A stretch of 20,000 bases of DNA from IMG/VR virus record IMGVR_UViG_3300032323_002498. One strand, written 5' to 3'. The stretch is from an uncultured virus (IMG/VR IMGVR_UViG_3300032323_002498) (taxonomy: Duplodnaviria; Heunggongvirae; Uroviricota; Caudoviricetes). Within the stretch, counting starts at the first letter, position 1, and every line of letters begins with the position of its first letter. This document shows positions 343 through 12,702 of this stretch, in pieces. The notes below the pieces were generated by a model. It saw only the letters and a program-made list of their open reading frames with translations, did not search any database and was not told the origin of the DNA. The translations under genes and the position numbers were made by a program.

Positions 343-3300
343 ATGTCCAAAGAAGATTCGATCCCTGCGGGCCTGGAGGAAGTAACACGTCCTCGCGCGA
401 GGATGTTTGGGGAAACTGCAAGTGACGTGCCAGAAGGCCTTGTAGAAGCTACCCCAAGCACGATGGATCGCCTGAGCCAGTACGCTCAGGGCGCAGGGCA
501 AGGACTTCTCACGGCCACTCCGACTGTGACCGGGGCCGTGGCCGGACTGAAGCTGGGCCTTCCCCTTGGCCCAGTCGGAGCCGTTGGCGGCATGGTGGCG
601 GGCGGCGTTGGCGGCTTCTACGCTGGACAGAGCGCGGAAGAGGCCTACAAAGGGTTCTTTCCAGAGCCTGCTGACCCTACGGCAAAGGTCTATCGGGAGG
701 CAGGCAAGACATTCGGCGGCAGTCTGCCGTTCATGGCAGCCGTCCCCTATCTGCCTACGATGACCGGCAACCGCGTCAGCAGATTTGTCACAAGCATTCG
801 CGACGCAGCTGTGCGCAATCCCAAGACGTTCAAGACCAGCGAGGTCATGGGGGCTCTTGGTGCAAGTCTCGGGGCCGGAATAGCGGAGAGCGAGGACCCC
901 GGAGCACCCGGCACGCGCCTTGCCGGAGAGGTCGTTGGCGGTGTCCTGTTCCCAGGCCGCTTTTTGATCAACCAGACAGGAACCGTGATGGATGGCCTGT
1001 CGAAGATCGCGACCAACTTCAATGCAGGTTCGCGTGAAGCGCGGGCCGCGAACCGCCTGTATACGATTCTGGAAGAGTTTGGCGAGGACATCCCAACTCT
1101 GATTCGTCGCCTTGAAGCCGACATGCCGATTGACCAGCTGTCCATGCCCGGTGGAAAACGCATCACGCCCACCTCTGCACAAAAGACTGACAGCCTGGGC
1201 CTTACGGCACTGGAGTCAGCGTTGGGCCAGACCAACAAGAAGTTCCTGGGCGAAGCTCGGGAGCAAGGACGACAGGCTGCCCAGGCTTACCAACTGCTGA
1301 CAGACAGGCTCAAAAACATTGGCACTCAAGATGCCTTGTTCCTGGCCGCGCAGCTGCAGGAGGCACGCTTTACCTCCATGCTTGACGGCCGTCTGCAAGA
1401 CGCCGACAGGATCGCGGCGCTGAAGGTTTCCAAGCTCACGAAGGACACGCCTGAGGCAAGAAAGGCCATTGGAGCCACGATCAAGGAGCAGACCGAGCTC
1501 GCGCTGCGCGATGCGCGCGACTACGAGAGCAGTCTTTGGAAGGGCGCTTTGGACTCCCTGACCAAGCCTGACCTTAAGGCTTCCAGAAAGCGAACTGTAG
1601 TAGGGCAAGACCCGCAGACAGGAAAAGACATTGTTCGATATATTCCTGCCGCCCCTTCAATAGACCCTACCAACACCGCCAACAGTTTTGCCGAGCGGGC
1701 AGCCAGTGTAGGTCAGGCCTTGTATGACACTGCCATCCCGAAACCTGTTCGTGACATCATGGACGCCATGGGGGTCAACCAAGACTCTGTAAAGAAGTTT
1801 CGAGAGGGTCGACGCACAAGGCAGTACCTGGAAACAGGTCAGGTTCCTCAGAGTTTCTTGCCCAAGACAAAGCCTATAAGCATTGACGAGCTGGTGAACT
1901 ACCGTTCCACGCTGCTCAAGATGTCCCGCGAAGCCGCCGGGAAGGGCGACGTCAACAACGCAAACTTCTACGGCACGATGGCCGAGGGCATGCTGCAGGA
2001 CCTCAACTCGCTCAAGAACCCTGAGTTTGAAGAGGCGCGTCAGTTCTCCAAGTCCTTGAACGACGTCTTCACCCGCACCTTTGCCAAGACTGCCTCCGAA
2101 ACCGGGGACGTGGCAGGAAGCGGAGCAGAGCGCTTGCCAGCGGAGATTTTGGTGACGCGTGCCTTCGGCTCCAACGCCGACGTGACTGCCATGCGCATGA
2201 ACGAGATCGAGGGCGCGGTGAAGTTCATGTCCAAGCGCTACGACGACGCAGTGCGTGCCTTCGGTGCAGACAGCCCCCAGGCCATTGCGCTCAAGCCGGC
2301 CGCTGACGTCTCGCGCGCAGGAGCTGCATCGTTGGCTGATGCCCAGCAGCGCGTCCTGCGTATGGGCGCGTCGGCTGCCATCGACACTCGATTCGATCCG
2401 GCCACTGGCCGCGAGGTCACGCGCGTCAACACCAAAAAGCTGAACGACTTCGTCAAAGAAAACAAACCCATGCTGGACAAGCTGGGAATGACAGCGGACC
2501 TGACCGATGTGGTGAAAGCAGAGAACGCTTTCCGCATGGTTCAGAATGAGAACAGCGCGCTCATGAAGCGGGCCGCTGACCAGTACGCCTTTGGCAATGT
2601 CCTCAAGGCCGGCGGAGAGCGCCCCAGCACTGCGCTGGGCACTATCCTGAGCGGCAACACGCCTGTTCGCGACATGCAGAACCTGGTCAAGATGGCCACG
2701 GAAGCAGAGAACAGCACAGCCGCCGTTCGAGGCCTGAAGTCGTCGCTGTACGACTACGCATATACCAAGGCCACAAGCCCCAATGGCAGTTTCAGCCCAC
2801 AGGCTTTTGAAGACGCCTTCTTCAAGCCCCTGGGGCCAAACCTGCCATCGGTTGCCAACATCATGCGCGCCAATGGCATCATGACCTTGAGCGAGATGAA
2901 GGGCCTCAAGCGCCTGACTGATCCGATGATCCGCATTGAAAGGTCCATGGCCAGCGGCCGCACGCTCGATGAGATCGTGCCAGGCAGCGATGCGGTGGAA
3001 GAGCTGGTGCAGCGAGTCATTGGTGCACGTATCGGTACCGCAGCAGCTCCTAGCGGGCCTGGTGTACTGATTGCTGCTTCGGCAGGTTCCAAGGCTGTGC
3101 GCTCTATTTTCGACAAGATGCCTGGTCTGAACACCGTGACCCTTTTGGAAAGAGCGGCTCAAGACCCTGCCTATGCGGCGCTGCTACTTAAAAAGGGCCG
3201 AACAGAGCGGGAGAAACTCCAAATTGCACGGCAGCTGCACGGTTACATGCTGAACTCAGGACTGACCTACGCCACCCTTGATGAGCCTGAGCCCGCTGCG

Positions 3301-3591
3301 GTCAATCAATCGCCTTTCACCCCACAGGGTCGGGCAGCGCAAGAGCTGCGTCAATTTAATGAGTCGTTGCGCCAAACAGAGGAACGCCAGCGCCAGCAGC
3401 GTCAGAGTCCTCCAGCGCCCAGCACCCGTGGCGTCCCTGGACTCAACCCCACGCCAAGCGCTCCCAGCCAGCCTGGTGCATCAAACGCCCCTGCCAACTC
3501 CAGCGCTCGCTCCATGATGCAGTCGCTGTTCCCGTTTGACACCATCAGCGGGATGGCGGCGCAGCAACAGCCGCCTGCTGCGCCAAGGTAA
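343..3591 (+). CDS. Large 1082-aa protein, probable internal virion/DNA ejection protein
   Basis: Long ORF with AAGGAG RBS at 332-337. It has Gly/Ala-rich hydrophobic N-terminal segments (GPVGAVGGMVAGGVGG; GALGASLGAG), an apparently helical body and a Pro/Gln/Ser-rich tail, and no catalytic motif was recognised. Function is inferred from composition and position. Confidence 0.6.
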   Translation: MSKEDSIPAGLEEVTRPRARMFGETASDVPEGLVEATPSTMDRLSQYAQGAGQGLLTATPTVTGAVAGLKLGLPLGPVGAVGGMVAGGVGGFYAGQSAEEAYKGFFPEPADPTAKVYREAGKTFGGSLPFMAAVPYLPTMTGNRVSRFVTSIRDAAVRNPKTFKTSEVMGALGASLGAGIAESEDPGAPGTRLAGEVVGGVLFPGRFLINQTGTVMDGLSKIATNFNAGSREARAANRLYTILEEFGEDIPTLIRRLEADMPIDQLSMPGGKRITPTSAQKTDSLGLTALESALGQTNKKFLGEAREQGRQAAQAYQLLTDRLKNIGTQDALFLAAQLQEARFTSMLDGRLQDADRIAALKVSKLTKDTPEARKAIGATIKEQTELALRDARDYESSLWKGALDSLTKPDLKASRKRTVVGQDPQTGKDIVRYIPAAPSIDPTNTANSFAERAASVGQALYDTAIPKPVRDIMDAMGVNQDSVKKFREGRRTRQYLETGQVPQSFLPKTKPISIDELVNYRSTLLKMSREAAGKGDVNNANFYGTMAEGMLQDLNSLKNPEFEEARQFSKSLNDVFTRTFAKTASETGDVAGSGAERLPAEILVTRAFGSNADVTAMRMNEIEGAVKFMSKRYDDAVRAFGADSPQAIALKPAADVSRAGAASLADAQQRVLRMGASAAIDTRFDPATGREVTRVNTKKLNDFVKENKPMLDKLGMTADLTDVVKAENAFRMVQNENSALMKRAADQYAFGNVLKAGGERPSTALGTILSGNTPVRDMQNLVKMATEAENSTAAVRGLKSSLYDYAYTKATSPNGSFSPQAFEDAFFKPLGPNLPSVANIMRANGIMTLSEMKGLKRLTDPMIRIERSMASGRTLDEIVPGSDAVEELVQRVIGARIGTAAAPSGPGVLIAASAGSKAVRSIFDKMPGLNTVTLLERAAQDPAYAALLLKKGRTEREKLQIARQLHGYMLNSGLTYATLDEPEPAAVNQSPFTPQGRAAQELRQFNESLRQTEERQRQQRQSPPAPSTRGVPGLNPTPSAPSQPGASNAPANSSARSMMQSLFPFDTISGMAAQQQPPAAPR

Positions 3592-4249: not shown

Positions 4250-5691
4250 GCTTTGATTTCCTCTCCCAGTACTTGGGTTGCGATGTCGATCTTTGAGCGC
4301 AGCGCCTTGACGATCTTCTCGTCCACGGTGCCCACGGCCATCAAGTCAATGTAGGTGACGTTCTTGGTTTGGCCAATGCGGTGTGCCCGATCCTCGGACT
4401 GCAGGCGTTTTTCCAGGTCAAAGCTGTTGCTGTAGTAGACCGTGGTGTGGGCCGCTGTCAGGGTCAGGCCGTAGCCGCCGGTGCTGGGGTTGGCGACGAA
4501 AAAGCGCAGCTCGCTGTCAGGGTCCTGAAAGTCGTTGACGATGCGCTGGCGCTCCTCCGATTCGGTGTCGCCGTAGTAGGTGGCCACGCTGTTCATGCCG
4601 TACTCTTTGGCCAGAGCGATCTTGATGGCCTCGATGTCGTGGCGATAGTTGGCCCAGATGATGATCTTGCCGTCCGTCTCCTCGACAATGGCCAAGAGCT
4701 CGTCCAGGCGCTTGTTGGGCAGCTCCACCACCGTGCCGTCATCCAATTTCACGTGGCCGCAGACGATCTGGTGCAGGCGCATGATCTGCGTGAGGGCGTT
4801 TACGGTGCTCACAATGCCGCCGTCAATCTGCGCCAGAGCCAGCGCCTTCATCTCGTTGTACGCCTTGATCTGCTCGGGCGTCAGGTCCACCTCTCGCTTG
4901 ATGTAGAGCTTGTCTGGCAAGTCCAGGCACTCTTCCTTTTTCACGCGGAAGGCAAAGCGGTCGAGCTTTTCTTTGAGCTCGTCCAGACGCCTGTAGCCCA
5001 CCACCTGCTTGAAGCTGTGGGTGTTGAGCTGGCGCTCGACGGTGACGCAGTAGCGGGCCTGGAAGACGTAGAAGCTGCTGACGTTCAGGCAGCCGTCGGA
5101 CAAGAAAGCACACTGCTGGTACAGGTCCATCGGGCTCTTGGTGACCGGGGAGCCCGTGAGGATGCGCCTGTACCGCGCGCCACGGCCCACCTTCTCAGTG
5201 TTCTTGCTGCGCGCAGAGGTGTGGGTCTTGATGGTGGTGCTCTCGTCGATCGCCATCATGGCGTTGTGCACCAGCAAAAAGCGCTTGGCGTAGGCCGTGC
5301 CCTTGGCCGTGCTGAAGGCCTCGACGTTCATGACCAGGATTTTGAGGTCTTCTGTGACGGTGAACAGGTCGTCCATCGCCTTTTGCTCGGCCTTGCGCGG
5401 GTTGGGTGACCAGATGGCCATGCGGTAGACGATGTGATCGGGTAAGTGCTTAGGGATTTCAGTGTCGTACCAGTTGCGGTAGACGCCTTTTGGCGCTACG
5501 ATCAAAAACCCGTTGATCTTGCCCCTGTCGTAGAGTATGGCCACGTTGTTGATCAGCATGAAGCTCTTGCCTGTGCCCATGTCGGCAAAAAGAGCTGCTA
5601 CCTGGAAGTCCCAGAAGCGCTGAAGGTAAGCCTGTTGATGGACAAACGGCTTATTCTTGAAGGGGTAGGTCGATAAAAATTGATCAGTCAT
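4237..5691 (-). CDS. SNF2-family (SF2) DNA helicase/translocase
   Basis: Motifs ADMGTGKS (I), IVAPK (Ia), IDESTTIK (II), LTGSP (III), GGYGLTLTAA (V) and QSEDRAHRIGQ (VI). Start placed at ATG 5691 (MTDQFL...), which follows AGAAAG, rather than at the ORF-track TTG 5718. Confidence 0.93.
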   Translation of the reverse strand: MTDQFLSTYPFKNKPFVHQQAYLQRFWDFQVAALFADMGTGKSFMLINNVAILYDRGKINGFLIVAPKGVYRNWYDTEIPKHLPDHIVYRMAIWSPNPRKAEQKAMDDLFTVTEDLKILVMNVEAFSTAKGTAYAKRFLLVHNAMMAIDESTTIKTHTSARSKNTEKVGRGARYRRILTGSPVTKSPMDLYQQCAFLSDGCLNVSSFYVFQARYCVTVERQLNTHSFKQVVGYRRLDELKEKLDRFAFRVKKEECLDLPDKLYIKREVDLTPEQIKAYNEMKALALAQIDGGIVSTVNALTQIMRLHQIVCGHVKLDDGTVVELPNKRLDELLAIVEETDGKIIIWANYRHDIEAIKIALAKEYGMNSVATYYGDTESEERQRIVNDFQDPDSELRFFVANPSTGGYGLTLTAAHTTVYYSNSFDLEKRLQSEDRAHRIGQTKNVTYIDLMAVGTVDEKIVKALRSKIDIATQVLGEEIKAWLI

Positions 5692-5712
5692 GTATATCTT
5701 TCTGGCAGGGGG

Positions 5713-5742
5713 TTGCAATGCCCTGAAAAGATAGTGTACACT
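5713..5742 (+). promoter_or_regulatory. sigma70-like promoter for the replication operon, in the divergent control region
   Basis: TTGCAA (5713-5718), 18-nt spacer, TACACT (5737-5742). The -10 lies in the palindrome AGTGTACACT (5733-5742), so TACACT is present on both strands. Confidence 0.6.
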
Positions 5743-5773
5743 GCCTGTTCGAATTCAGAAAGGAGAAATTCAC

Positions 5774-6118
5774 GTGCCCAAGGTTTACGTCGTCTCAGAG
5801 ACTACGCAACACAACATCGCAAGCGCTCTGGACTATGGCCAGATCGAAACTATTTTGCCGCCCAACGCGCAGATAGCATTCTCTGTTGTACCGACAGTCC
5901 GCCGCATTCAGCGCAAGCTGGAGAAATTTACTGACGAGGACTTCCTGCTCCTCATCGGTGACCCGTCTGCCATAGGTATCACCTGTGCAGTAGCGGCCGC
6001 AAAAAACAGCGGTCGTTTTAAGTGCCTCAAGTGGGACAAGCGCGAGCGCCGCTACATTCCGCTGGAGGTTGATTTGTTCAAGAAAGGAGAAAGTGATGAG
6101 TCTTACGAATTTATTTGA
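5774..6118 (+). CDS. Conserved phage hypothetical protein (114 aa, alpha/beta)
   Basis: GTG start after AGAAAGGAG. Motifs VYVV, FLLLIGDP and LKWDKR. First gene of the replication operon. Confidence 0.8.
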   Translation: MPKVYVVSETTQHNIASALDYGQIETILPPNAQIAFSVVPTVRRIQRKLEKFTDEDFLLLIGDPSAIGITCAVAAAKNSGRFKCLKWDKRERRYIPLEVDLFKKGESDESYEFI

Positions 6119-6650
6119 AGATGACGCCGGTGCGTTGAAGGTATCTGACGAGCAGGTAACTGGCATCGCTGGCCTGGCCAAGCGTGCCAAGATGCTCGAA
6201 AAAGAGATTGCAGAGATGGAGGAGACTCTGTCTGAGCGCAATGAGCAGTACCGCAAGCTCACCGAGCAGACTATCCCAGAGGCCATGGCCGAAACTGGGA
6301 TGAAGAAATTCGTCATGGAAGATGGCAGCAGTATCGACATCAAGCCGTTCTACGGAGCGAGCATTCCAAAGGCGCGCCAGTCCGAAGCCTACCAGTGGCT
6401 GCGCGACCACGGTTTTGACGACATCATTAAAAACACCATCAGCGTTCGCTTTGGACGCGGTGAAGACGAGCTCTCTGTTCGTCTACTGAATCTCCTGGGC
6501 GAGCAAGGCTACCCTGCCGAGCAAGCACAGAAGATAGAGCCCCAGACCCTCAAGGCCTGGGTCAAGGAACGTGTTGAGAAGGGCGAGCCCGTCGACACTG
6601 AGCTTTTTGGCGTATTCATTGGCCAAAAAGCTGTCATCAAATCAACTTGA
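6096..6650 (+). CDS. Conserved phage replication-module protein (184 aa, N-terminal coiled coil)
   Basis: ATG 6096 after AGAAAGGAG (6081-6089). Heptad-like N-terminus, then IPEAM, WLRDHGFDDIIKN and PQTLKAWVKE motifs of a type seen upstream of phage ssb genes. Confidence 0.75.
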   Translation: MSLTNLFEDDAGALKVSDEQVTGIAGLAKRAKMLEKEIAEMEETLSERNEQYRKLTEQTIPEAMAETGMKKFVMEDGSSIDIKPFYGASIPKARQSEAYQWLRDHGFDDIIKNTISVRFGRGEDELSVRLLNLLGEQGYPAEQAQKIEPQTLKAWVKERVEKGEPVDTELFGVFIGQKAVIKST

Positions 6651-6667
6651 AACAAGGAACACGAATC

Positions 6668-7441
6668 ATGGCTAAGAACGAAATCGCGGAAAAGACTGCC
6701 AGCACCGCACTGGCGATCATGAGCGACCTGGAACAGGACGCTGGAGCCGGCTTTGACGGCATGACGCAGGAAGACTATGCATTGCCTTTCCTGCGCCTGC
6801 TCACCAGCACCAGCCCTGAAGTTGGCGAAGTTGACGGTGCTCTTCCGGGCATGGTCCTTAACTCCGTCACGGGTGAGCTGTTTGACGGCAAGAAAGGTAT
6901 CACCGTTGTGCCGTGCGCCTATGTGCGCCAGTACATCGAGTGGGCCCCACGCGGTCAAGGCAGCGGTGCACCTGTGCATATCTATCCTGCAACCAGCGAC
7001 ATCCTGTCGCAGACTCACAAAGAGCCTGGCGACAACAAGGACTACCTGGACAATGGCAACTACATCGAGAACACGGCCAACTACTACGTGATGTTGGTCA
7101 GCCAGGACGGCGTGCCTGAGCCTGCTTTGATCACCATGAAGTCCACGCAGCTCAAGAAGAGCCGCAAGTGGAACTCCATGATGCAGTCAGTCAAGCTGCA
7201 GGGCAAGAACGGCCTGTTCACCCCTCCGATGTACAGCCAGCTTTACCAGCTCACCACCGTTGGCGAGTCCAACGACAAGGGCAAGTGGTTTGGCTGGGAG
7301 ATCGAGCGCCTCGGCCCTGTCGAGAGCAGCGACATTTACAATGCAGCCAAAGCATTCGCACAATCGGTCAGTGCGGGTGACGTGAAAGTGAAACACGAAA
7401 GCGAGTCTGGAGCATCCGGCAACGGTCCAGCACCATTCTGA
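6668..7441 (+). CDS. Putative single-stranded DNA-binding protein (257 aa)
   Basis: ATG 6668 after AAGGA. Beta-rich core (YIEWAPR, ALITMKSTQLKKSRKWNS, GKWFGWEI) with a flexible tail ending in PF. Located just before the primase. Confidence 0.6.
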   Translation: MAKNEIAEKTASTALAIMSDLEQDAGAGFDGMTQEDYALPFLRLLTSTSPEVGEVDGALPGMVLNSVTGELFDGKKGITVVPCAYVRQYIEWAPRGQGSGAPVHIYPATSDILSQTHKEPGDNKDYLDNGNYIENTANYYVMLVSQDGVPEPALITMKSTQLKKSRKWNSMMQSVKLQGKNGLFTPPMYSQLYQLTTVGESNDKGKWFGWEIERLGPVESSDIYNAAKAFAQSVSAGDVKVKHESESGASGNGPAPF

Positions 7442-7446
7442 TTTTC

Positions 7447-7541
7447 GGGGCCGAAAATGTTCGGGAGACTGATAGTTGTTGCACGCCAGGTAGCTCCTGG
7501 CTGGCAATCTTCGGGTACCCCTTCCGGCTTGAGTAGGCCCC
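7447..7541 (+). ncRNA. Candidate structured RNA / long imperfect hairpin in the ssb-primase intergenic region
   Basis: GGGGCC 7447-7452 pairs with GGCCCC 7536-7541. The adjacent GAA 7453-7455 and AGTA 7532-7535 form a loop-E signature. Inner stems are TTGC 7479-7482/GCAA 7504-7507 and GCCAGG 7485-7490/CCTGGC 7496-7501. Confidence 0.55.
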
Positions 7542-7560
7542 ACCTCACTAGAAAGAAGAA

Positions 7561-9093
7561 ATGACCGACATCACCAGGTTCAAAGCGATTTTTTCCGGCC
7601 TGGACATCGCCTATGGAACATACAAAATTGAATCCTCCCGAGGAGACGGGAAACAGGCAGGCAAGGCCGTCGTGGTGCGCAAGCCACCGACTGACGACTT
7701 GTGGACCAAACACCTTGAGGGCGTTGAGCCGAGTCTGGGAATTATCCCGATCCGGGCGGATAACTCCTGTATCTGGGGCTGTATTGACATTGACCAGTAT
7801 CCACTGGACCACGTTGGCCTCATCAAAAAGGTAAGGAGCCTCGAGCTCCCAGTGGTGGTGTGCCGCAGCAAGTCAGGTGGCGCGCATGTCTTCCTGTTCA
7901 CCCGAGAACCCATACCCGCTGCTGAGATGCAGCGGTTTCTCAAGGCTTGCGCTGCCCTGTTGGGCGAAGCAGGCCGCGAGATATTCCCCAAGCAAGCTGA
8001 AATCCTGGTTGACCGTGGCGACACGGGCAACTTCCTGAACCTGCCGTACTTCGGCGGGGACATGACCATGCGCTACGCCATCAAAGATGATGGCTCGGCT
8101 GCGACGCTCGAAGAGTTCTACGAGCTGTACGAGCAATGGGTCCAGGGCCCTGACCTCAAGTATCCAGAGGAGCCGAAGGAGCCTGATCACCCGATCAAGG
8201 ACGGCCCTCCCTGCCTGCAGGCGCTGTGCGCCCAAGGCGTACCCGAAGGCACGCGCAACAACGCCCTCTTCAACATCGGCATCTACCTCAAGAAAGTCAT
8301 CCCCATACACTGGGACGACGCCCTGGTAGAGCACAACCTCAAGTATGTCTCGCCGCCGCTGCCCAACAACGAAGTCCAGATTCTGGTCAAGCAGCTGCAC
8401 AAGAAAGACTATCGCTACAAGTGCAAGGACGCACCGCTCAACAGCTTTTGCAACAGCGGCCTTTGCAGGACACGCAAACACGGGATCGGGGCCCACGGGC
8501 CAGACTCCCCGCAGATGTCCTCGCTGTCCAAGTACAACTCCGAGCCGCCGCTGTGGTTCCTCGACATCAACGGCAAGCGCATCGAGCTCGACACCGAGAG
8601 CCTGTTTGCACAGGCCGCATTCCAGAAAGCCTGCGTCGAGAAGCTCAACCTCCTGCCGCCCACACTGCGTAAGCAAGACTGGGAGCAACTGCTCAATGCG
8701 CTGCTCAAAGAGATGGTGGAGACCGAGCAGATCACCGAGGCCAGCGAGGACACCAGTATCACCGGCCGCTTCAACGATCTGCTCGAAGAGTTCTGCACAC
8801 ACCTGCAGCAGGCAATGGACCGCGACGAAATACTCATGGGCCGTCCATGGACGGACGACGAAGAGGCCAAGACCTACTTCCGCATGAAGGACCTGGAGGC
8901 GCACCTGGTGCGCAACAACTTCAAGGGCATGACGCATCCAAAGATGGCCCAGCGCATTCGCGATCTGGGTGGCGAGCCCATCAGCCTCTTCCTCAAGAAC
9001 CGCGCAGCACGGTGCTGGCGCATCCCACGCTTCAGCCGCCAGGACGCGCCATTTGAGACACCAGAGCAGCGCACACAAAGGAGTCCCTTCTGA
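7561..9093 (+). CDS. DNA primase, archaeo-eukaryotic primase (AEP/prim-pol) type with PriCT-1-like domain
   Basis: Motifs WGCIDID (DxD), SKSGGAHVFLF (SxH) and GNFLNLPYF; PriCT-like GTRNNALFNIG...PPLPNNEV; Cys cluster PPCL...CK...C...C. No P-loop helicase domain was seen. Confidence 0.85.
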   Translation: MTDITRFKAIFSGLDIAYGTYKIESSRGDGKQAGKAVVVRKPPTDDLWTKHLEGVEPSLGIIPIRADNSCIWGCIDIDQYPLDHVGLIKKVRSLELPVVVCRSKSGGAHVFLFTREPIPAAEMQRFLKACAALLGEAGREIFPKQAEILVDRGDTGNFLNLPYFGGDMTMRYAIKDDGSAATLEEFYELYEQWVQGPDLKYPEEPKEPDHPIKDGPPCLQALCAQGVPEGTRNNALFNIGIYLKKVIPIHWDDALVEHNLKYVSPPLPNNEVQILVKQLHKKDYRYKCKDAPLNSFCNSGLCRTRKHGIGAHGPDSPQMSSLSKYNSEPPLWFLDINGKRIELDTESLFAQAAFQKACVEKLNLLPPTLRKQDWEQLLNALLKEMVETEQITEASEDTSITGRFNDLLEEFCTHLQQAMDRDEILMGRPWTDDEEAKTYFRMKDLEAHLVRNNFKGMTHPKMAQRIRDLGGEPISLFLKNRAARCWRIPRFSRQDAPFETPEQRTQRSPF

Positions 9094-9332
9094 TGTTGAA
9101 GATTGATGGACACGACGACGCGATCATCGGGCCTGCCCTGATATGGCGGAACAACACCATGGTGAGCGTCCTGGTGTACGACGCGGAAGTGATCCGCAAC
9201 ACGCTGGTGACACGTGACGCTATGGCCTTTGATGATGCACGTGAGTACATCGAGTTCAACATCGAGGGCGCATACATGGGGGAGCACACCCCCGTGCTGG
9301 TCTGGCCATACGACGAGTGGAGCGAGGAATGA
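9093..9332 (+). CDS. Small conserved phage hypothetical protein (79 aa)
   Basis: TGATG coupling to the primase stop and ATGA coupling to the helicase start. Motifs DGHDDAIIG and EYIEFNIEGAYMGEHTP. Confidence 0.8.
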   Translation: MLKIDGHDDAIIGPALIWRNNTMVSVLVYDAEVIRNTLVTRDAMAFDDAREYIEFNIEGAYMGEHTPVLVWPYDEWSEE

Positions 9333-10828
9333 ACATCACCAAAGTGTTCGGCCCGCCAGGGTCCGGCAAGACCACCTACCTGCTGAGCATCGTTGAGACC
9401 GAGCTGGCCAACAACGTGCATCCGATGAAGATCGGCTACTTTGCTTTCACCAAGAAGGCGGCTACTGAAGCGCGCGACAGGGCCATCCAGAAGTTCCCGC
9501 ACCTGCACCCCGAGACCGACTTCCCGTTCTTTCGCACGCTGCACAGCCTGGCCTACCGGTGCCTTGGCATCAGCACCAAGGACATGATGTCGCCAGAGCA
9601 CTACCGCGAGTTTGCCCAGGAGGCCGGCATTGAGCTGGCCATCGAAAACGGCGATGAAGAGTTCGCGGTCAAGGCCGACAACCCCATCCTCAACGAGATC
9701 AACATCGCCCGCATCCGGGGCGTGGACCTCAAGACCCACTACAACCAGTCCAAGATGGATATCGAGTGGTATCACTTCGAGTACGTCGAGCGGGCTTACC
9801 GGCACTACAAGGTGTCGCGCAACCTGCTGGACTTCACCGACCTCCTGGAGCACGTGCTGCTGGAGCCCGAGCGCCTGCCTAAGCTGGAGGCCCTGATCAT
9901 CGACGAGGCGCAAGACTTGTCACGTTTGCAATGGAGGCTGGTCGAGCAACTCGCGTTGCGAGCCCAGCGCGCCTTTCTGGCAGGAGACGACGACCAGGCT
10001 GTTTACACTTGGGCTGGAGCCGACGTCGCAAGTTTCCTGGGGTTTACAGGTGATGTCAAAGTCCTTGATCAGTCCTACCGAGTCCCCGCCAAAATCCACG
10101 CCTTAGCCAACAGGGTGGTCACCCGCATCAAGCACCGCCAGCCCAAGGTCTGGAAGGCACGCGAAGAGGTGGGCAGCATCAACTACTACAACGACTTCCA
10201 GCAGGTCGACATCAGCCACGGCAACTGGCTCATCCTGGCCAGCACCAACTACATGCTCACGGACATGCACGACTGGATCAAGAGCCAGGGCCTGCTGTTC
10301 GAGCGCCACGGACAACGCAGCGTCAGCGAGAACATCCTGATCGCGGTGCTGGGCTGGGAGAAGCTGCGCAAGGGCGGCGAGGTGCCGTTCCCCGTCGTCA
10401 AGCTGATCTACAAGTACCTGGATGGCGATTACATCAAGCACGGCCACAAGATGCTACGCACGGCCGACCCGAATAGTATGTACACACTCTTTCTGCTGAA
10501 AGAAAAGCACGGACTTCTTTCAGAGGAAATCTGGCACAAGGTGCTGACCAAGATCAGCGCGGACCGCCGGGACTACCTGGTCTCGCTCCTGCGCCGCAAC
10601 ACAAAGCTCACGGGCAACGTGCCCATCAAGTTGTCCACGATCCACGGAGCCAAGGGCGGCGAGGCGGACAACGTGCTGCTGCTGTCTGACCTGTCCACGC
10701 GCTTTGCGAAGGACTACGAAAAGAATTCAGACGACATCAATCGTCTGCTGTACGTGGGCATCACCCGCGCCAAACAATCGCTGCACATTGTGCTGCCAAA
10801 GAATGAACAGAAAGGCTTCCGACTATGA
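9329..10828 (+). CDS. UvrD/Rep-like superfamily 1 DNA helicase
   Basis: Motifs GPPGSGKT (Walker A), AFTKKAA (Ia), IIDEAQD (II), GDDDQAVY (III), QSYR (IV), TIHGAKGGEAD (V) and LYVGITRAK (VI). ATG 9329 follows GAGG. Confidence 0.95.
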   Translation: MNITKVFGPPGSGKTTYLLSIVETELANNVHPMKIGYFAFTKKAATEARDRAIQKFPHLHPETDFPFFRTLHSLAYRCLGISTKDMMSPEHYREFAQEAGIELAIENGDEEFAVKADNPILNEINIARIRGVDLKTHYNQSKMDIEWYHFEYVERAYRHYKVSRNLLDFTDLLEHVLLEPERLPKLEALIIDEAQDLSRLQWRLVEQLALRAQRAFLAGDDDQAVYTWAGADVASFLGFTGDVKVLDQSYRVPAKIHALANRVVTRIKHRQPKVWKAREEVGSINYYNDFQQVDISHGNWLILASTNYMLTDMHDWIKSQGLLFERHGQRSVSENILIAVLGWEKLRKGGEVPFPVVKLIYKYLDGDYIKHGHKMLRTADPNSMYTLFLLKEKHGLLSEEIWHKVLTKISADRRDYLVSLLRRNTKLTGNVPIKLSTIHGAKGGEADNVLLLSDLSTRFAKDYEKNSDDINRLLYVGITRAKQSLHIVLPKNEQKGFRL

Positions 10829-12702
10829 AGCGCGATACCAAGACCATGTCTATGTTCCCTCGGATTTCCGAGTGGCTGCCCCCACAGACATTCCCTAACC
10901 TGAGCGAAGCCAAGGAGATTGCAATTGACCTGGAAACCTGTGATCCGAACATGGAGTCGCTTGGTCCTGGCTGGCCTCGCAACGATGGTTTTATCGTCGG
11001 GTACGCAGTCGCCGTGGATGGGTGGGCTGGCTACTTTCCTGTTGCTCATGCTGGTGGTGGAAACCTGGATAAACGCCTGGTGGAACGATGGGTGGCGGAC
11101 GTTCTCCGTACCCCCGCCGACAAAATCATGCACAACGCCGCCTACGACCTCGGATGGCTGCGGGCCACGGGATTCGAAGTAAACGGCACGATCTACGACA
11201 CCATGCTGGCCGCGCCAGTGCTGGACGAAAACCGCTTTTCCTACAGCCTCAACAGCCTGGGCTTTGACTACCTCAAGGAAATCAAGTCTGAGCAGGGTCT
11301 CAAGGAGTCGGCGCAGGACTTTGGTGTGCACCCCAAAAAGGAGCTGTGGAAGCTGCCTGCCATGCATGTGGGCGACTACGCCGAGCAGGACGCGGCGCTG
11401 ACTCTGAAGCTGTGGCATCACTTCAAGGCGCTCATGCGCAACGACGAAGTGGAGTCGGTGTTCAAGCTCGAGACCGAGGTGCTGCCAGTGCTGGTGGACA
11501 TCACGCTCAAGGGCATCAACTTTGATCGCGCCAATTGCGAGCGCCACATGGCTGAGATGCGCAAGAAGGAGATCGCAATCCTGAAGTACCTGAAGGAGCA
11601 GGCCGGCATGCAGGTGGACATCTGGGCTGCGCAGTCCATTGCCACTGCGTTCGACCGTCTGGCCATCGAGTACCCCAAGACAGCTGCTGGCGCGCCGAGC
11701 TTCACCAAGAGCTTCCTGGACACCCATGAGCACCCCATGGCCAAGATGATCCTGGAGGCCCGGGAGCTGAACAAGACCCACGGCACGTTCTTGGAGCCGT
11801 ACCTCAAGCACAGCGCCAAGGACGGGCGCATCCACACCCACTTCAACCAGATGCGCAACGAAGACGGCGGCACGGTGACTGGGCGTCTGTCTGCGGCCAG
11901 CCCAAACCTCCAGCAAGTGCCCGCGCGCCACGAGATCATCGGCCCGATGGTGCGGGGCCTGTTCCTGCCCGAGGAGGGCCAGCTTTGGGCGGCGAACGAC
12001 TTCTCCTCGCAGGAGCCGCGCTTGTTGGTGCACTATGCCACACTCCTGGACCTGCCAGGCGCAGAAAAGATGGCGAGGGCTTACCGCGACGACCCGAACA
12101 CGGACTTCCACCAGATGGTCGCCGACATGGCCGGCATCAAACGCAAGGCTGCCAAGACGATCGGCCTGGGCCTGATGTACGGCATGGGCAAAGCCAAGCT
12201 GGCCAACAGCCTGGACCTGCCCATCGACGAGGCCAGCGAGCTGATCGCCACGTTCCACAGCAAGGTCCCGTTCCTCAAGGGCACGGTGGACGCCGTCATG
12301 AAGCGCATCGACCATCCGGCCTCTGGCGGCTCGATCCGCACGCTGCTGGGCCGCAAGTGTCGGTTCCCGCTTTGGGAGCCCGTGGAGTGGGGCGTGAACA
12401 AGGCGCTGCCGCGTGAGCAGGCCATCATTGAATACGGCTCACGGATCAAGCGCGCGGGCACCTACAAGGGCCTGAACCGCCTGATCCAGGGCTCGGCCGC
12501 AGACCAGACCAAAGCAGGCATGGTGGCGCTGAGCAAGGCAGGTTTTAATCTGCTGCTGCAGGTGCACGACGAGGTGGCGTTGTCTGTGCGCAACATCGAC
12601 GAGGCCCGCGAGGCCGCAGACATCATGGCCAAGGCCGTGACCCTGGAAGTCCCCTCCCGAGTGGATGTGGAGACTGGACCAAGCTGGGGCGAAGCCGCAT
12701 AA
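10825..12702 (+). CDS. polA: Family A DNA polymerase with 3'-5' exonuclease domain and no 5'-3' exonuclease; Leu762 type
   Basis: ExoI IDLET, ExoII HNAAYD, ExoIII YAEQD; TGRLS...PNLQQVP; motif A NDFSSQEPR; motif B RKAAKTIGLGLMYG; motif C QVHDEV. Confidence 0.97.
   Translation: MKRDTKTMSMFPRISEWLPPQTFPNLSEAKEIAIDLETCDPNMESLGPGWPRNDGFIVGYAVAVDGWAGYFPVAHAGGGNLDKRLVERWVADVLRTPADKIMHNAAYDLGWLRATGFEVNGTIYDTMLAAPVLDENRFSYSLNSLGFDYLKEIKSEQGLKESAQDFGVHPKKELWKLPAMHVGDYAEQDAALTLKLWHHFKALMRNDEVESVFKLETEVLPVLVDITLKGINFDRANCERHMAEMRKKEIAILKYLKEQAGMQVDIWAAQSIATAFDRLAIEYPKTAAGAPSFTKSFLDTHEHPMAKMILEARELNKTHGTFLEPYLKHSAKDGRIHTHFNQMRNEDGGTVTGRLSAASPNLQQVPARHEIIGPMVRGLFLPEEGQLWAANDFSSQEPRLLVHYATLLDLPGAEKMARAYRDDPNTDFHQMVADMAGIKRKAAKTIGLGLMYGMGKAKLANSLDLPIDEASELIATFHSKVPFLKGTVDAVMKRIDHPASGGSIRTLLGRKCRFPLWEPVEWGVNKALPREQAIIEYGSRIKRAGTYKGLNRLIQGSAADQTKAGMVALSKAGFNLLLQVHDEVALSVRNIDEAREAADIMAKAVTLEVPSRVDVETGPSWGEAA

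Follow-up and report, generated by a model that had tools for sequence, protein, structure and literature searches.

A conserved folded RNA with a bulged-G-type base between an SSB-like gene and a primase gene in uncultured phages

Comparison among related phages shows a real, conserved folded RNA in the gap between a Pam3 gp34-like gene and a primase gene of the window, as we call the whole 20,000-nt stretch of uncultured phage DNA analysed here (IMG/VR IMGVR_UViG_3300032323_002498). Judged by its signature, this phage RNA is uncatalogued and makes use of a known three-dimensional motif. What is new here is that the base of the hairpin, a short stem of 3-8 bp with a bulged-G loop and two further pairs, is a self-standing module. 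The element probably helps to set the protein output of the genes on both sides of it.

Results

Locus and architecture of the element

The window carries gp32-, gp33- and gp34-like genes of the Pam3 type at 5774-7441, followed by an AEP primase, and the gap between the SSB-like gp34 gene and the primase, put at about 120 nt in a preliminary description of this DNA, measures 119 nt (7442-7560). The features of the locus are these:

6668..7441, + strand: upstream gene, Pam3 gp34-like (PF23977, E 3e-67)
7447..7541, + strand: the complete RNA structure, 95 nt, aligned without indels across 39 relatives
7447..7452, + strand: 5' strand of basal stem P1, pairing with 7536-7541; 100% paired in 39 sequences
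7453..7456, + strand: GAAA strand of the 4x5 bulged-G/loop-E-type internal loop; invariant, 40/40
7457..7467, + strand: 5' strand of helix P2, pairing with 7521-7530; register slips by one position between subclades
7469..7478, + strand: CNGAUAGYUG, one of two nearly invariant core strands in the top specific to this clade
7479..7507, + strand: apical hairpin with a short extension; strongest covariation
7512..7520, + strand: CGGGYRCCC, the other nearly invariant core strand of this top
7531..7535, + strand: RAGUA strand of the bulged-G loop (GAGUA in the window); AGUA invariant, 40/40
7536..7541, + strand: 3' strand of basal stem P1, pairing with 7447-7452
7542..7560, + strand: unpaired tail, purine-rich, with a probable ribosome-binding stretch at 7550-7560 free of the fold
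7561..9093, + strand: downstream gene, AEP-family primase (PF22548, phrog_21866)
9317-10828, + strand: UvrD helicase, 3' of the primase
10825-12702, + strand: family A polymerase, 3' of the UvrD helicase

The stem begins 5 nt past the TGA, and the 95-nt fold has a predicted energy of -40.2 kcal/mol. The outer parts of the rod that the preliminary description had drawn are borne out: the GGGGCC/GGCCCC basal stem is present and covaries across unrelated phages, the loop-E signature corresponds to GAAA opposite GAGUA in a 4x5 loop kept in 40/40 of the class (the consensus fold also contains this loop, with GAAA/RAGUA nearly invariant), and the apical GCCAGG/CCTGGC stem with its 5-nt loop (7485-7490/7496-7501) covaries strongly. 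The apical stem as a whole spans 7484-7490/7496-7502 and encloses a loop (7491-7495) in which U, G and C are invariant. The stems proposed in between are specific to the window, CTGA/TCGG being 68.6% paired, with its A-U pair in 1/39 sequences, and TTGC/GCAA having two of its pairs in 9/39, with a register shifted by one in most relatives. Helix P2 is 83.3% paired, with two-sided changes in 5/10 pairs and a second register in some relatives. A putative G-U-rich pairing of the core strands, 7469-7478 with 7512-7519, holds in 98.7% of cells and shows 0 two-sided changes. About 19 nearly invariant core bases and three invariant loop bases lie between freely covarying helices. The last 11 nt of the tail are invariant (25/25).

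Two alternative hairpins had also been proposed. The one at 7441-7458 would need a 2-nt loop to form its 8 pairs and has a pairing probability of 0.0 in context; the GNRA hairpin at 7461-7472 has a pairing probability of 0.05, and all four of its pairs are found in 22/40 sequences. A switch working through such mutually exclusive hairpins is improbable: they do not covary, and the tail with the ribosome-binding stretch is unpaired. No covariation indicative of a pseudoknot between a core strand and the tail or loop appeared in the mutual-information list.

The name ssb for the upstream gene was an assumption of the preliminary description. The family to which the protein belongs is the Pam3 gp34-like PF23977, and the resemblance of its predicted fold to OB-fold ssDNA-binding proteins gives the assumption some substance. 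The AlphaFold model (pLDDT 92) finds its best VIA-align match in a phiC31 RDF chain (Z 8.7, rmsd 4.0, 146 aligned), and other OB-fold chains align with it as well (BRCA2 OB, Z 6.3; T4 gp32, Z 5.5); Foldseek gave no match for the model at E<=0.001, and the protein has no match among PDB sequences. Because the model aligns best to OB-fold chains, the gp34-like protein is likely an SSB.

Evidence that the fold is real and lies on the mRNA strand

Single-sequence stability, for which comparison with shuffled controls had been suggested, is weak evidence, the fold being only slightly better than its shuffles (7441-7560, z -1.21; 7447-7541, z -1.97). The covariation sought in relatives was found, as two helices with compensatory changes and a GAAA/RAGUA loop kept across 39 sequences. 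In a gap-free alignment of these 39 distinct relatives, all of the window's 118-122 nt class, 91.1% of cells are paired, against 34-56% in slid controls, and two-sided changes occupy 97 cells against 29.9 in shuffles; 0/500 shuffles reach 97, a figure that is no probability because the 39 sequences are related. Covariation is strong in the apical helix, whose pairs show two-sided changes in 18, 15, 6, 5 and 19 of 39 sequences, and moderate in P2, where two registers occur. Within the clade the basal stem does not vary, which is uninformative by itself, and its covariation comes from the unrelated phages. Of the two strands, the + strand gives the better fold in 38/40 sequences, and variable helix positions hold G-U in 180 cells versus A-C in 4; both the strand preference and the G-U excess therefore place the structure on the mRNA strand.

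The element is without a family match in Rfam. Across the window, the covariance models of Rfam 15 gave 0 matches at the gathering threshold; at E<=10 the region 7300-7700 gave two chance matches only, and nothing relevant was found in 13 loci of other gap classes. By eye the apical loops recall the anticodon loops of tRNA-Ala, a similarity that is backed by no test and was set aside.

Gap classes and exchangeable tops at the gp34-primase locus

The survey started from the best 80 of 367 viral relatives of gp34. Its 80 gaps (79 loci and the window) comprise 41 of the window's 118-122 nt class, 24 shorter forms that share the base, 10 with an unrelated 151-152 nt RNA and 5 with a plain hairpin. 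After added pattern scans, gp34 was followed by the primase in 308/322 records, giving 95 distinct gaps, a set biased towards the pattern and with one gap (L279) cut at the wrong stop. The short relatives consist of the stem, the GAAA/RAGUA loop, two or three pairs and a 3-4 nt cap. Among 79 matching gaps the loop is GAAA/GAGUA in 53, GAAA/AAGUA in 9, GAAA/UAGUA in 5, GAAA/CGGUA in 5, AAAA or CAAA/GAGUA in 5 and of other types in 2; variants of the GAAA strand in short forms are AAAA, CAAA and GAAC. A signal for stop-codon readthrough or frameshifting was considered and rejected, neither the stop codon (TGA 81, TAA 11, TAG 2) nor the frame to the next gene (gap lengths spread 61/17/17 of 95 over all three frames) being fixed. 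In one locus (L257) an extra short ORF (506-781, - strand) follows the ssb gene and separates it from the hairpin, whose place next to the primase is unchanged. Plain hairpins occupy the orthologous position in phages DSL-LC04 and 023Pt_psg01, and HTVC023P has no gap there. Four of the plain GC hairpins (L047, L061, L062, L064) share an AUGG-containing loop.

The 151-152 nt RNA (L004:3293-3443 and seven distinct others, in L007, L014, L016, L022, L034, L041 and L043) has a long basal stem, a three-way junction, two hairpins and invariant loop letters, with two-sided changes in 6/37 predicted pairs and no match in Rfam; its 11 matches are confined to the gp34-primase locus. The window's top is likewise restricted to this locus, since 45/45 pattern matches belong to the window's class, and it is present as a single copy in each of two complete genomes. 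In DNA trees of gp34 (65 rows) and the primase (62 rows), which are approximate since these phages recombine, the gap classes are interleaved, and a single clade for the 151-nt class is rejected in both flanking gene trees (AU p 1.7e-6 and 6e-8). These comparisons indicate that the top is optional and is swapped between relatives. Other tops recur in unrelated gene contexts, namely a C-rich loop and a GCGGAUGC-type stem (L322, L342, L345, L395). The C-rich unpaired loop cap (L077:3290-3364, L322, L342, L323 and similar) occurs in gp34 and exonuclease contexts, and such caps could pair with G-rich targets. A second stem extension (L067:3293-3385, L027, L327, L345, L395) is common to unrelated phages and is found beside gp34, another SSB-like gene and RecT.

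The base recurs in unrelated phages

A pattern for the minimal hairpin matched 74 viral loci, 32 in gp34/primase context and 42 elsewhere. The sequence of the loop matters for this recurrence: a control pattern in which the stems were kept and the loop was scrambled gave 10 matches. In 21 of the 42 loci without gp34/primase, a set that includes near-duplicates, a frame of >=55 codons ends <=15 nt upstream, as against 6.5% at random positions; in the remaining 21 a long frame ending close upstream is absent. Outside the gp34/primase context the module often lies 5-12 nt past a stop codon, the genes that end there being unrelated ones for SSB, RecT, an exonuclease or a capsid protein. In 28 of the loci, which were annotated, the upstream genes include DUF669 SSBs (L347, L358, L365), an Enc34/gp2.5 SSB (L372), RecT (L395) and PD-(D/E)XK exonucleases (L322, L342). 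In several cases the gene upstream is a small ORF of no recognised family or lies 30-60 nt away, and at some annotated loci the upstream gene is unrecognisable. The genes downstream encode a polymerase, a helicase, RdgC, YqaJ or products without recognised function. Proximity to the stop codon is partly automatic, because phage intergenic gaps are short. At three loci (L334, L340, L382) the upstream ORFs encode cysteine-rich products of 60-80 aa with a signal-like start, have no Pfam or PHROG match and are followed by the module at 6 nt.

With two stem positions freed in the pattern, 28 loci were matched, and complementary stems were found in 18/21 distinct ones, with four different sequences, where about a quarter would be expected by chance; in two loci of this set (L491, L510) the hairpin follows a gene for a major head protein. 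In 30 selected minimal hairpins the stem pairs show two-sided changes in 3, 5 and 7 sequences. The invariance of the loop outside the clade is partly by design, because all distant matches were obtained with patterns that fix the loop. A model of the minimal hairpin, which misses the long form present in the window, never had more than one strong match in any of ten phage records.

In bacteria, the minimal-hairpin model matched 3/141 genomes of one phylum, and the long-form model 0/146 genomes among the candidates scored. An origin in the host was rejected, the seven pattern matches in genome contigs lying mostly inside long ORFs. A Sutterella match between infC and rpmI (L402) is attributed to chance, with 1/30 such gaps matching, and a looser pattern run on 151 genomes of the Sutterella order gave no excess over the reversed control. 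The tally of 151 genomes, and probably that of 146, includes one unpublished genome, on whose sequence no conclusion depends. In many Sutterella-order genomes the same infC-rpmI gap (L446-L475) has, ahead of rpmI, a conserved stem of leader type that resembles an L20-type ribosomal leader. Among cultured phages, blastn gave no real match to the element.

Discussion

Our preferred reading, to which we give a probability of about one half, is that of a cis-acting intercistronic mRNA element that would protect or delimit the upstream message and insulate the start of the primase. In many unrelated phages the module lies close behind a stop codon and close ahead of the ribosome-binding site of the next gene. 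It may mark the 3' boundary of the upstream message, either as a barrier to 3'-5' decay or as a leaky site of end formation; it could also stop terminating ribosomes from re-initiating on the downstream gene. By such means a stoichiometric, abundant protein (SSB, RecT, capsid) would be made in excess over the downstream primase, helicase or polymerase. A 3'-boundary element is suggested by the position after abundant genes, by the free ribosome-binding site and by the replacement of the module by plain or terminator-like hairpins, since plain GC hairpins, some with U-runs, at the orthologous position (5/80 close relatives, DSL-LC04, 023Pt_psg01) point to a job of the 3'-end type. Because unrelated phages share the bulged-G loop, it may serve as a handle for a host protein or complex. 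The tuning of SSB relative to primase suggested in the preliminary description is plausible in this general sense, but the module is specific to neither gene and follows many unrelated ones. A plain hairpin could do the work of a barrier, which leaves the invariant loop and the 19-nt core without explanation, and one strong copy per phage record searched is few for a general stabiliser and counts against the boundary role. Contigs of relatives assembled from RNA runs extend from the ssb stop into the element (7346-7580 and 7353-7514; two runs of one study), although these contigs are strandless, carry no information on ends or level and may derive from DNA.

REP-type intercistronic stabilisers and leaky terminators follow highly expressed phage genes. 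Our element resembles them in its site after abundant genes and in leaving the next start unoccluded, and differs in being single-copy per record searched, in having a conserved internal loop and no U-tract, and in its rarity in host genomes (3/141). In the ribosomal sarcin-ricin hairpin the strand polarity is the reverse of that seen here (GAA 5', AGUA 3'), so the element is not a copy of that loop; the substitutions of G by A or C at the sheared pair agree with tolerated pairs. GAA opposite AGUA is the sarcin-ricin/bulged-G (loop E, S-turn) motif, a site of RNA and protein recognition (PMC5737476), and our element shares with it the GAA/AGUA strands, the asymmetric loop and the two helices; here the motif, recognised by its sequence signature, stands in a phage mRNA gap. 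In a synthetic operon, translation of the next gene is insulated by hairpins that immediately follow a stop codon, and the element is, like the ribosome termination structure (RTS) of that work, a stable hairpin directly past a stop within an operon, but the RTS is defined by folding energy only, whereas here the sequence of the loop is fixed and the top is conserved (PMC7518266). Uncharacterised intergenic RNAs of phages, some beside SSB or primase genes, have likewise been found by covariation, by Fremin et al. in 2023 (PMC10690425) and by Weinberg et al. in 2017 (PMC5737381); from these candidates the element differs in its lack of an Rfam match; it may be among the 8,495 IMG/VR candidates of the former. 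The literature searched, with subscription papers mostly outside its coverage, contained no description of the element, and term searches of PMC13551039 returned no mention of it.

The invariant core of the top is unexplained by a boundary role, and this keeps small-RNA and ribozyme readings alive. A small RNA could be cut from the abundant ssb message, the bulged-G base serving as protein handle and the top as a decoy or antisense RNA against the host. Close phages exchange complex tops whose cores are invariant, as with the 151-nt RNA, which does not form one clade; the same tops recur in unrelated gene contexts (L322, L342, L345, L395), and exchange of top alleles would be typical of host-interaction loci. 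The minimal forms, however, are entirely topless; complementarity to 29 gene leaders of the window is not above background, five phage records have no common antisense site, and four RNA runs gave no high-depth stand-alone contig, a weak argument as such libraries lose short RNAs. On balance we think a small RNA unlikely. A composite of both ideas, in which the shared bulged-G handle would recruit a host factor to the ends of abundant messages while carrying, in this freshwater phage group, swappable payloads that are set free or displayed as decoys, antisense RNAs or catalysts (the 95-nt domain, the C-rich loop, a 91-nt form and the 151-nt RNA, exchanged like alleles of a host-interaction gene), is a tentative and rather unlikely possibility. 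A top that worked as a ligand-binding domain or as a small self-cleaving ribozyme, processing or regulating the polycistronic message, would agree with the invariance of some 19 core and three loop bases and with the absence of indels in 95 columns. We nevertheless consider this very doubtful, as no Rfam ribozyme or riboswitch matches even at E<=10, the core presumably does not fit the hammerhead consensus, the top is absent in relatives and no pseudoknot covaries.

That the element is a translational operator or switch to which the phage's primase or SSB binds, so controlling primase synthesis, is quite improbable: the element ends 19 nt 5' of the primase start and, despite the extra ORF of L257, its hairpin adjoins the primase, but many unrelated genes have the module in front of them, the fold leaves the ribosome-binding stretch unpaired and the alternative hairpins have pairing probabilities of 0.0 and 0.05. 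The autoregulation of T4 gp32 by way of an RNA structure (PMC10690425, section 2.6) speaks in favour of such an operator. For an RNase III processing site, as raised in the preliminary description, one can cite the long rod with its 4x5 loop between two genes. The R sites of T7 are long hairpins with an asymmetric internal loop, and RNase III needs roughly two helical turns. The long form is an interrupted rod, and the minimal members, in which no more than 2-3 pairs stand above the loop and 3-8 beneath it, are too short for the enzyme; the invariance of the loop sequence would also be unexpected, and RNase III is accordingly a poor candidate. A leaky intrinsic terminator has slightly poorer prospects still. 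Sister phages have a hairpin with a U-run at the same place (L047, 023Pt_psg01), and in the short forms the 8 nt that follow the stem contain a mean of 3.4 U, whereas the window's class has a mean of 2.0, no terminator-like site was found on the + strand in 5500-9400 and A-rich sequence follows many distant members; the absence of a U-tract had already been read as speaking against a plain terminator, and rightly so. We give least credence to a single-stranded DNA hairpin origin read by the AEP primase, also proposed earlier. The primase is adjacent, there is a near-palindrome at 7513-7520 and the + strand could be the lagging-strand template, but the predicted DNA fold lacks the basal stem (z -1.5 on both strands), G-U-rich helices and the bulged-G signature are features of RNA, a GC-skew switch is absent here, and the module follows capsid and other genes far from a primase, in loci that lack one.

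If the cis-acting reading is true, phages would set operon protein ratios by a shared, sequence-specific module of 25-30 nt rather than by any hairpin, which would point to a host reader; so short a part lends itself to testing. Should the tops prove to be functional payloads, the locus would be a hot spot of uncatalogued phage RNAs with at least two complex folds. The phages concerned are an abundant freshwater group related to HTVC023P-type pelagiphages. The nearest annotated record is phage DSL-LC04 (76% gp34 identity), Pelagibacter phage HTVC023P being far off (40%), and gene order is the same in both and in the window. A gp34 protein 89% identical to that of the window is labelled Limnohabitans sp. 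by its source, a hint only as to the host. Elsewhere in the window, an SNF2 helicase and a PD-(D/E)XK nuclease are oriented opposite to the replication genes, and 5718-5774, where this pair (- strand) and the replication operon (+ strand) diverge, is a likely promoter region, in which a search for a sigma-70 match gave none. At 343-3591 (+ strand) lies an ORF of 1082 aa with no match in Pfam or PHROG; the DSL-LC04 gene at its position is annotated as a DNA transfer protein.
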